Positions 57,497-59,797 are shown, numbered from the stretch's first letter. The stretch: DNA of 64,000 nt from Gammaproteobacteria bacterium (GCA_965221955.1 CBDCTA010000029.1:160001-224000), one strand, 5' to 3'. Numbers and translations: made by a program. Notes: generated from the letters alone by a model not told the origin.

Positions 57497-58141
57497 CTAG
57501 AGACCTTGCATAAGCACAGGTAAATTTCTTGCTTGGCCAATCATCAGTTCTAAAGATCTTGGGTCGGGCACTTCTTTTACACGTTTTTGTTCATCATTGG
57601 AACTCAATAAATTATTATATAGAGTGTTTGTGTCTTGTTGACCTAAGTCTTGTACAGAATCAATACCTGCATATACCATTAATTCAGCAAACTGACCTTC
57701 AATTCCACTGACTCGCATCAAGTCACACATACTTGCCCATTTGCTCACTACGAAGTCTTCGATGCCAATGTGGTTGGCAACCTCTATACGGCCATCCATT
57801 TGACAACACTTCTGCAATAGTTGTTGGGTCGTGGCAATGCCTTTATCACGAAGCTTGTTACCGTAACTTTTTCCTATACCTTCTACTTCTTCTATTTCAT
57901 AGCTAGTCTGTTCAGCTTTAGAAATCAATCCTGCTGCGGTGCCCGCGGCGATAGGCTTGTTTACTTCAGCAAGCTTTGTGGAATATTCCTGATCTTGTTC
58001 ATCTAATTTCTTTTTCCAGCTTGCATCGAGATCATCAAGTTTTGTGCAGCATGAACTTTTTGCTAGCCACCATCCGAAAACCGCACCTAGCAAAGCTGCA
58101 AGTAATAAACATAGCCACATTTGTTGAATTAAATAGCTCAT
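57497..58141 (-). CDS. DUF4332-like helix-hairpin-helix protein with TM anchor
   Basis: IEEVEGIG..Y..KL...GI.T, W..MCDLMRV.GI..QFAEL. Confidence 0.85.
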   Translation of the reverse strand: MSYLIQQMWLCLLLAALLGAVFGWWLAKSSCCTKLDDLDASWKKKLDEQDQEYSTKLAEVNKPIAAGTAAGLISKAEQTSYEIEEVEGIGKSYGNKLRDKGIATTQQLLQKCCQMDGRIEVANHIGIEDFVVSKWASMCDLMRVSGIEGQFAELMVYAGIDSVQDLGQQDTNTLYNNLLSSNDEQKRVKEVPDPRSLELMIGQARNLPVLMQGL

Positions 58142-58143
58142 TG

Positions 58144-58896
58144 TTAAAGCCCCTCTACATTAAATTCTATTCTTCTGTTTTTTGCTTTACCTGCATCGGT
58201 TTCATTATCCGCTATTGGCTTGGTTTCACCGTAACCTATAGCAGATAAGCGACTTGCTTCAACGCCGTTGTTGATCAAATGGTCCATTACGGCAGTAGCA
58301 CGTGCTTGACTTAATAGTAAGTTGTAGTCATCGTCGCCGCTAGCATCGGTATGCCCTCTAATCTCAATTTTTGCTTCAGAGCACTGATTGGCAATATCGG
58401 TTAAATCGTTTAATAAAGCATGACTTGACGGGTCAATATCAGCACTATTCGTTGCAAAATTAATTTTATTTAGATTTAGTAAAACATCAAAGTCTTGCTG
58501 ACAAGTATATTCAGGGAGAGGCTCTAGCTTAGGTTTTAGAATTTCTGCGTCTATTTCTTTTTTTGCAGTATCTGTATCAGAGACAGGTTCTAATTCTGTA
58601 ACAGGTTCTTCTATAGAGGCGATAGTAAGTTGATTGTCTACCGTGTGAACACCGTATACTTGTTTGGCGTGTTGTTCTGCCTTTTGTTTGATTTTATCGC
58701 TTGCGACTTCACCCGTGAGGACGATATCACGACCATCCGTTACGATGTCTATATCATCTATGCCTAGTTCAGCAAGGGATGCATGAAGGCGGGTATCGAT
58801 GTCAATTTGAATAATAGTGCTGCGCTCATAGATGCAAAAATAGCCAAGGATAGCGAGCAATAATAAACCTAGTAATACAATCAAGGCTTTATTCAT
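58144..58896 (-). CDS. BON plus OmpA-like peptidoglycan-binding protein
   Basis: L.GEV...GV..VDNQL; GHTD...N..LS..RA; GYGE..PIADN; NRRIE. Confidence 0.92.
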   Translation of the reverse strand: MNKALIVLLGLLLLAILGYFCIYERSTIIQIDIDTRLHASLAELGIDDIDIVTDGRDIVLTGEVASDKIKQKAEQHAKQVYGVHTVDNQLTIASIEEPVTELEPVSDTDTAKKEIDAEILKPKLEPLPEYTCQQDFDVLLNLNKINFATNSADIDPSSHALLNDLTDIANQCSEAKIEIRGHTDASGDDDYNLLLSQARATAVMDHLINNGVEASRLSAIGYGETKPIADNETDAGKAKNRRIEFNVEGL

Positions 58897-59002
58897 TAGA
58901 ACTCTCCATCACGTTATTTTTAGTCTTGTTTTGTAATGAAACACTGCTGAGGAATGCTAAAAAACTGGTATGTTTCGAAAAACTAAATCCAGGCTAACGC
59001 AT

Positions 59003-59269
59003 TCATAATTTGTTTGCAATCATAAAATATTGCTTAAGCTTAGAGGAAGTATTTGAGCAAAATTGTAAATGCACATGAGAACCTTCTCCAAAGCATACTG
59101 TTGCAAATATGTTTTGGGGAAGCCACTCTTTTTTCATTTTTACTTTTTCTAAACGCCGTTTAGATTTATTACTTTTACGATGTATACCACCTTTGCGGAG
59201 TAAAGGATGATTGTGTAAAAGATTTCTTTGCCGAGTCAATTTAGTCGGAAACTTGATTTTATTCGACAT
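59003..59269 (-). CDS. Basic small protein, putative ArfA-like alternative ribosome-rescue factor
   Basis: ATG 59269 with ggag RBS; RNLLHNHPLLRKGGIHRKSNKSKRR...KKEW, then a hairpin-encoded tail. The CDS is fairly well supported; the function is inferred. Confidence 0.6.
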   Translation of the reverse strand: MSNKIKFPTKLTRQRNLLHNHPLLRKGGIHRKSNKSKRRLEKVKMKKEWLPQNIFATVCFGEGSHVHLQFCSNTSSKLKQYFMIANKL

Positions 59270-59291
59270 TATATTCTCCATAATTAGATTA

Positions 59292-59332
59292 ATATTCCAT
59301 AAAGGAAGTACTGAGTTATCAATACTCCCTTA
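59292..59332 (-). other. Intergenic 13-bp stem-loop upstream of the ArfA-like gene
   Basis: On the mRNA: aagggagtattga-taac-tcagtacttcctt. Confidence 0.6.
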
Positions 59333-59560
59333 TGCCGCTTCTTTCACGAGTGTTCCATCATGAATTGCTTGTTGAATGTGCTTCATGAAATACAGTGAAT
59401 TTTTCTCTGCAAATAACACCTCATCCTGCATTGTATTAACAGGTACTGGAAAGCTATATAACTTTTCACTGTATGGCACGGACACAGCGTAGTACGCAAT
59501 ACCTTTTCGGTAGCGTAAAAATTTTGCCTTACTGTTTAGTAATTTGTTTTGAATATTCAT
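59330..59560 (-). CDS. Small FPVP-motif protein (paralog B)
   Basis: RBS aggtgg; aligns with 59582..59797. Confidence 0.8.
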   Translation of the reverse strand: MNIQNKLLNSKAKFLRYRKGIAYYAVSVPYSEKLYSFPVPVNTMQDEVLFAEKNSLYFMKHIQQAIHDGTLVKEAA

Positions 59561-59581: not shown

Positions 59582-59797
59582 TTACGCAGCTTTGGCTTTA
59601 TCCAATTTTTCTACATGCGCTTTGATGTAAGGGTAAAAACGATTCACACGATCTTCATTTAAGAAAACCGACTGACCTGAGCCTTTAATTGGCACAGGAA
59701 ACTTAAAACCACTTTCAGTGCGGTACCATAATTTCCCTGATAGGAAAAACATGAAGCGTACATTTTCATTATCTTGCAGAATTTGTTCTAGATTCAT
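59582..59797 (-). CDS. Small FPVP-motif protein (paralog A)
   Basis: RBS aggagg; V.F.....G.LWY.T..GF.FPVP......VFL.ED. Confidence 0.82.
   Translation of the reverse strand: MNLEQILQDNENVRFMFFLSGKLWYRTESGFKFPVPIKGSGQSVFLNEDRVNRFYPYIKAHVEKLDKAKAA

Follow-up and report, generated by a model that had tools for sequence, protein, structure and literature searches.

Near one end of the window, the whole 64,000-nucleotide stretch of gammaproteobacterial DNA analysed here, lies a short gene for a very basic protein whose reading frame runs on through an RNA hairpin. An earlier note on this DNA took the gene for a divergent member of the Arf family with the same non-stop logic. Does it encode a back-up ribosome-rescue factor made from non-stop mRNA, and would such a factor be an ArfA?

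Gene and predicted product in the window

On the minus strand, the longest reading of the frame (59003-59281) encodes 92 amino acids counted from the first ATG. Since the homologues begin at the ATG at 59269, downstream of a GGAG motif, the product was taken to have 88 amino acids, with the Trp as residue 49 (Table 1). GGAG-type sites were found ahead of the same start in relatives, too. The core of the protein carries the motif RN-LLHNHPLL-KGG-H-K-NK-KRR...KKEW and contains 17 Lys plus Arg residues, with a pI of 12.0 and a GRAVY of -1.43. For the monomer, AF2 predicted one basic helix at residues 34-49 (pLDDT 87-89) at an overall pLDDT of 73.6, a structure too simple for a fold search.

The database searches gave no name for the protein. 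Pfam yielded no match for the window protein, PADLOC nothing, and NCBIfam nothing relevant either for this protein or for 39 cores of the family described below. A profile search over all PDB chains returned 0 matches at E<=10, and the best named clusters of the ESM Atlas reached 0.85-0.86, under the lead level of 0.9. At the RNA level, no Rfam family was found at E<=1 within 58800-59500. For 58900-59400, the sequencing runs listed were four of contig type with DNA as source, all from one study, and no RNA run was among them.

Table 1. Coordinates of the gene, its hairpin and the neighbouring genes in the window.
Feature	Position	Strand	Remarks
Full reading frame	59003..59269	(-)	88 codons plus stop (TGA, 59005-59003); likely start ATG 59269
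Ribosome-binding site GGAG	59276..59279	(-)	6 nt ahead of ATG 59269
Conserved coding core	59123..59269	(-)	49 codons, Met to Trp
Trp codon TGG	59123..59125	(-)	at the hairpin foot, directly 5' of the first arm; final position of the family profile
RNA hairpin	59077..59128	(-)	core arms cttccccaaaacata (59122-59108) and tatgctttggagaag (59097-59083); 10-nt spacer 59107-59098; outer pairs GAG/CUC reach 59128-59077; no T-run after
Non-conserved tail codons	59006..59122	(-)	first 13 encode the hairpin arms; rest variable in length and sequence among relatives
Two small upstream ORFs	59330-59560, 59582-59797	(-)	76 and 71 amino acids
BON plus OmpA-like gene	58144-58896	(-)	downstream
DUF4332/HhH gene	57497-58141	(-)	downstream

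The earlier note had described a 15-bp inverted repeat at 59083-59122, directly after the Trp and with two A.C mismatches, and the arms lie exactly as it described them: the hairpin is imperfect, the 15-nt arms forming 13 pairs plus the two A.C mismatches. Using RNAfold for 59135-59070 of the minus strand, a free energy of -19.0 kcal/mol was obtained (z -2.55), and 4 of 200 shuffled sequences folded as well. On its single sequence, the hairpin of the window is only moderately unusual; the case for it is strong through the comparative data. A terminator scan of 58850-59450 found 0 terminator-like sites, and the stem of the window is not followed by a T-run.

A widespread family without a name

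A word-indexed search identified 34 close homologues of 51-92 amino acids. Up to and including KKEW-LPQNIF..V.FGE they align as conserved sequence; beyond this point the alignment breaks down, and the tails differ widely in length. Using a profile of 39 family cores against 1.84 billion cluster representatives, 595 were matched at E<=1e-3 and 92 at E<=1e-10, nearly all of them proteins of 45-133 amino acids that were matched at the N-terminus. That the frame is a chance ORF was rejected because of these 595 conserved relatives.

In a whole-genome search the gene was found in 22 of 61 relatives, all 22 within the window's taxonomic family. A later search located it in 22 of the 56 genomes of that family, including all 14 of the window's genus. 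Species-representative genomes contributed 27 further loci, with record titles naming Ca. Thiodiazotropha, Sedimenticolaceae, Chromatiales, Methylococcales, Thiohalomonas, Competibacteraceae and Acidihalobacter. In an evenly drawn sample of the gammaproteobacterial class, 29 of 401 genomes and 24 of 320 genera carried the gene. ArfA as defined by Pfam (PF03889) was present in 5 of 400 genomes of this sample and is thus rarer than the new family. The family is without a name in any source consulted, its members being called only "hypothetical protein", and 10 of 10 clusters looked up were nameless; keyword searches of the literature, which involved no sequence look-up, retrieved no paper describing it. 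Judged by these matches, it is a large, widespread and unnamed gammaproteobacterial family.

Two records call for a comment. The member at L015 / L029 lacks ATG, GTG and TTG where the start is expected, and in frame upstream of its core only ATT, ATA and CTG occur. At L024, in a record titled "uncultured Mycobacterium sp.", the gene is 79% identical to that of the window over the matched part. As all other matches bear gammaproteobacterial labels, this one is probably wrong.

The alignments place the end of protein conservation at the Trp, as the earlier note had expected, with a tail that varies in length and sequence. The residues encoded by the hairpin had been said to look like an unrelated tail. 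In close relatives, the first approximately 13 tail residues (LPQNIF..V.FGE) are in fact conserved, at the RNA level, since they correspond to the two hairpin arms.

Conservation of the hairpin as RNA

A stem starting 3-12 nt ahead of the Trp codon was found in all 22 loci of the window's taxonomic family, each of which was translated and folded. A stem in the same place was present in all 27 species-representative loci, with entirely different sequences. The stems are AT-rich in the window's group and GC-rich elsewhere, and they are often far longer than that of the window, with 28-31 pairs in L006, L007, L013 and L022 according to a crude count.

We compared the hairpins with the background of their own loci. 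An earlier ranking by the minimum free energy of 90-nt segments against the locus background had placed 19 of 40 loci in the top 3 windows. As this ranking was too blunt, a test of inverted-repeat length was used instead. With this test, the hairpin ranked first in length among all inverted repeats of its 3-5 kb locus for 33 of 40 non-redundant loci, and in 37 of the 40 at most one background window was as good. The median length of the inverted repeat was 20.5 bp at the hairpin versus 9 bp in the background, and for all loci together 42 of 3521 background windows equalled the target of their locus. The exceptions were L021 (9 pairs), L023 (13 pairs) and L018; L021 and L023 have weak or different stems.

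Covariation, which the earlier note had proposed as a check, was analysed for the window's taxonomic family in an ungapped MAFFT alignment of 21 sequences, and the hairpin does covary. Paired cells amounted to 88.3%, versus 42-60% when the 3' partners were slid by 1-3 columns, and 10 of the 24 pairs were changed on both sides. None of 500 shuffles reached the observed value on any of five covariation measures, and RNAalifold found the same stem independently. Clear compensations were seen in L022, where the Trp codon is changed to His (CAT with ATG), in L016 (CTA/TAG) and in L017 (CCG/GCG). When the clades were compared, the 24 nt following the Trp codon sorted into 16 unrelated clusters from 44 distinct sequences, and the stem was formed in each of them.

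The position of the stop codon relative to the stem is informative, too. In L008, L020 and L021 the reading frame ends within the loop, 7 codons past the Trp, and the 3' arm (translated as "VYFGE" or "QFGE") is still conserved beyond the stop; the conservation of the tail is therefore attributed to selection on the RNA and not on the protein. According to an automatic and crude parse of 40 loci, in which L032 was mis-parsed, 26 loci have the stop downstream of the hairpin, 7 within the 3' arm, 4 within the loop and 3 within the 5' arm. Taken together, the hairpin is conserved as RNA.

Distant relatives with a terminator inside the reading frame

The motif RNPVARSPLLRKGGAH-KS is common to the weaker matches of the class sample. 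In several of them, an acidic, DEW-rich stretch comes next, followed by a conserved "S/A-P-F-F" motif. Read by eye, the Phe-Phe is the translated T-run of a GC-rich stem that lies inside the ORF, 60-200 nt before the stop. Such an in-frame stem with T-run is carried by L106, L110, L111, L115, L116, L122 and L127. L109 has an ordinary terminator after the stop, and the best stem of L114 is located after the stop as well. The design is not common to every distant relative, some weak class-sample matches having their stop before the stem.

Comparison with ArfA, BrfA and ArfT

In its gene design, the new family is close to ArfA, the alternative ribosome-rescue factor A (YhdL of E. coli), a bacterial back-up factor produced only upon failure of the main rescue system. 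Both proteins are of similar size and charge (ArfA 1-55 contains 13 Lys plus Arg, with a pI of 10.35 and a GRAVY of -1.45) and have the motif P-L-[F/L]-R in common. In ArfA, too, a stem-loop within the ORF marks the end of the active part and is followed by a hydrophobic tail that is not conserved, and the codon of E. coli Trp51 opens the 5' arm of the known hairpin, which puts a Trp at the foot of the stem in both. ArfA recruits RF2 to non-stop ribosomes, and its loss is synthetically lethal with that of ssrA. It also occurs in Gammaproteobacteria alongside tmRNA, SmpB and RNase III. The arfA stem-loop acts via RNase III or premature termination (PMC8012679). In the RefSeq record at L063:4432-4650 (E. 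coli arfA), an arfA-derived small RNA, yrdG, is annotated over the 3' end. The new family differs from ArfA by K-[ST]-x-K-x-x-R-R, after an invariant KGG-x-H, in place of ArfA's KGKGS, and by the frequent position of the small gene as the last of an rtcB operon.

Homology was a different matter. The Pfam ArfA model (cut-off 25.5 bits) gave no match at E<=1 for the window protein, the E. coli sequence being found as control, and it matched 0 of 39 family cores at E<=10 and 0 of 148 representatives at E<=1. [quoted passage not shown] Using hhalign, the 39-core family aligned with ArfA over 39 columns with a probability of 0.10 and an E of 0.56. With a family profile of 184 sequences, only 8 columns were aligned (E 0.16), and a reversed-ArfA control scored better (E 0.082). 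In HMM cross-searches, the new-family HMM reached at most 4.8 bits on 126 ArfA sequences, and the ArfA HMM at most 11.7 bits on the family. The earlier note had stated that the KGKGS motif is lacking, and rightly so: these residues (K34 G35 K36 G37 S38), invariant in the ArfA alignment, are absent, and the window protein reads KSNKSKRR at the corresponding place. As no similarity to ArfA was detectable, the family is not a demonstrable ArfA member, though the gene is built alike, and the earlier note's assignment to the Arf family was not borne out as a statement of homology. Since neither ArfA nor any PDB chain is detectably similar in sequence, a function is not transferable by homology.

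It could be argued that the family is a true ArfA homologue which has diverged past recognition, with the same ancestor and an RF2-specific mechanism, P-L-L-R standing for the P-L-F25-R strand of ArfA. The first hhalign run did align its 39 columns end to end, placing LLHNHPLLR on LLHD-PLFR and Trp on Trp, and both proteins have a spacing of 33 residues between LLH and W. The family member P0275 reads ILHDPLLRKGG and accounts for the 11.7 bits with the ArfA HMM. In both genes, the Trp codon stands at the hairpin foot. ArfA F25 docks in a pocket of RF2, as passages of PMC6299226 describe, and the Leu matching it is invariant in the new family. Furthermore, within one genus, G166 (L068) has a Pfam ArfA without the new gene and G345 (L124) shows the reverse, an alternation seen in this single case. 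Against common ancestry stand the hhalign probabilities of 0.1-0.4, with E values no better than that of the reversed control, the failure of both models on the members of the other family and the missing KGKGS; moreover, the LLH likeness is true for only part of each family. We consider an ArfA homologue unlikely.

To our knowledge, BrfA (YqkK of B. subtilis) is limited to Bacillus. Its chains are presumably among those in the PDB, none of which was matched by the family profile at E<=10. The logic of BrfA is the same non-stop logic as proposed here. The brfA gene carries an internal terminator, according to passages of PMC8012679 and PMC6881298, and this intrinsic terminator inside the ORF is matched only by the distant subgroup of the new family; unlike brfA, the window's own stem is not terminator-like. 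ArfT of Francisella tularensis is a small basic factor of 40 amino acids from a gammaproteobacterium without ArfA and ArfB. Compared by description, its KKGGSTNKK (PMC6299226) loosely recalls the KGG-x-H-x-K-S-N-K of the new family. The arfT gene is reported to lack both a terminator and an RNase III site ahead of its stop (PMC6299226), whereas the new family has such an element. A list of the ArfT family is given in PMC6514570.

Rescue genes in the carrier genomes

The window's genome, which is 96.6% complete, encodes a tmRNA (224.9 bits) with the tag ANDDNYALAA, and SmpB and RNase III are both present. Only two genes with an RF-1 domain were found, RF1 and RF2; there is no ArfB over the cut-off and no ArfA. 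A lone match of the ArfA model in this genome (E 0.021, 16.4 bits) was rejected as noise, with two stops inside. The window protein itself, of only 49-88 amino acids, has no RF-1 domain (PF00472, GGQ-bearing) according to Pfam. Complex prediction for the family core and the RF2 of this genome, each supplied as an alignment, scored 0.00 against a mark of 0.32, a result without bearing on whether the two bind.

Within the window's taxonomic family, ArfA was detected in 0 and ArfB in 2 of the 56 genomes. All 22 gene carriers are without ArfA or ArfB, both ArfB genomes are without the gene, and 32 of the 56 genomes are without ArfA, ArfB and the new gene alike. The last figure speaks against a simple complementarity. 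In the class sample, complementarity with ArfB was not found: ArfB was present in 14 of 29 carriers, the same share as the 191 of 400 overall, a tally that includes four unpublished genomes, none of them a carrier.

Gene neighbourhood and association with rtcB

The surroundings of the gene are syntenic within the window's taxonomic family, with two small paralogous ORFs upstream and the BON-OmpA and DUF4332 genes downstream. The upstream ORFs show weak paralogy to one another (23.5% identity over 68 amino acids, E 1.6e-4) and have no family match. A GC-rich clade of five loci (L033, L042, L044, L048, L101) carries the gene of the ribosome-binding GTPase BipA/TypA downstream; here the core ends in REWDYPS and the stop lies inside the hairpin.

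Using tblastn on 76 loci, rtcB and/or a conserved gene for a 315-aa protein were found directly upstream and on the same strand in 22 of them, these 22 including 15 of the 27 loci of the evenly drawn class sample. Two gene orders occur: rtcB follows the 315-aa gene in one and precedes it in the other, the small gene coming last in both. At L035:302-2770 a three-gene cassette has the small basic gene last, and the cassette is also found at L038-L041, L045, L047, L103, L106, L110, L111, L113, L114, L116-L121, L124, L126 and L127. Since both rtcB and the 315-aa gene are missing from the window's genome, the small protein is independent of them.

For the 315-aa protein (L035:302-1246), no Pfam, NCBIfam, PDB-sequence or PADLOC match was found. 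Its predicted fold is confident (pLDDT 90.3, pTM 0.91). The structural matches are nearly all GNAT acyltransferases and of middling quality, with Foldseek E values of at least 0.07 and VIA Z of 6.6-8.2 (rmsd 3.2-4.8 over 109-157 residues). The predicted GNAT-like fold is thus a lead, not an assignment.

A ribosome-rescue gene and an RtcB RNA ligase in one operon are described for PrfH-RtcB in PMC9304027, and the rtcB linkage of our candidate echoes this arrangement. PrfH, a homologue of release factors, has a GGQ domain of its own, in contrast to the small protein, which is without an RF-1 domain. The cassette of the new family differs from PrfH-RtcB further by the additional 315-aa protein of no known family, and its RtcB stays under the cut-off of the PrfH-linked RtcB model TIGR03073 (141.6 versus 271.8 bits).

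From this linkage arises the main rival to a rescue function, namely a small basic RNA- or ribosome-binding protein with another job in the RtcB RNA-repair module, such as RNA chaperone, ligase helper or ribosome silencer. The hairpin would then be an operon-end terminator or a 3' stabiliser overlapping the end of the gene. Such a role would fit the last position of the small gene in rtcB operons of many lineages and the missing anti-correlation with ArfB, and also the 14 of 40 loci with the stop inside the hairpin, since transcripts ending 3' of the stem still carry this stop. However, the window's genome, which has neither RtcB nor the 315-aa partner, keeps gene and hairpin, and so do all 14 genomes of the genus; moreover, 26 of the 40 loci have their stop past the stem, behind non-conserved tails. 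The subgroup with the in-ORF terminator translates the T-run itself, and the stem always starts at the same codon, which would be needless for a mere terminator. We therefore regard such a different role in the RtcB module as improbable. A leader peptide with an attenuator hairpin controlling the downstream gene has hardly any claim: a short ORF, then a stem-loop and, in the window, the same-strand BON-OmpA gene would suit it, but the downstream genes vary by clade (BON-OmpA, BipA, arginase-family, GGDEF, cytochrome, thioesterase, ABC ATPase), the core is strongly conserved over the 595 representatives, unlike leader peptides, no alternative anti-terminator pairing was seen and the window stem lacks a T-run.

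Proposed function of the family

From gene design and genome content, we infer that the gene probably encodes a back-up ribosome-rescue factor made from non-stop mRNA. The functional protein would be the conserved 49-residue core. The stem-loop beginning at the Trp codon that ends this core would, in most members, be a double-stranded stem of approximately 20 bp without a U-run, suiting RNase III; in the distant subgroup, it would be an intrinsic terminator inside the ORF. In both cases the stem-loop would truncate the mRNA ahead of the stop codon, which would place the factor under the control of trans-translation. Ribosomes would run to the 3' end of the factor's own message, and as long as trans-translation works, tmRNA-SmpB would tag the product for degradation. 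Once trans-translation is saturated or damaged, the untagged core would build up. It may then bind the mRNA channel via the basic helix predicted for residues 34-49 and would recruit a release factor.

A wider reading of these data is put forward tentatively. The family could constitute an unrecognised class of release-factor-dependent rescue factor, sequence-unrelated to ArfA, BrfA and ArfT and commoner than ArfA across the sampled Gammaproteobacteria. Its non-stop switch would have evolved at least twice, as an RNase III-type stem and as an in-ORF terminator. In many lineages, it would form part of a three-gene RNA-damage cassette with RtcB and the GNAT-like 315-aa protein, coupling the release of stalled ribosomes to RNA religation.

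Implications for ribosome rescue in Gammaproteobacteria

More small rescue factors that recruit release factors probably exist and are unfindable by sequence similarity, as reviews and primary papers state explicitly (PMC8012679, PMC6881298, PMC6299226), and rescue pathways are discussed as antibiotic targets (PMC8012679). The family described here is findable by its gene design, in which either a covarying stem or an in-ORF terminator marks the end of a conserved core. Its association with rtcB operons suggests a way in which RNA repair and the rescue of ribosomes may be coupled. For the many Gammaproteobacteria without ArfA, including sulfur-oxidising symbionts and environmental lineages, the family provides a concrete candidate for the back-up rescue factor.
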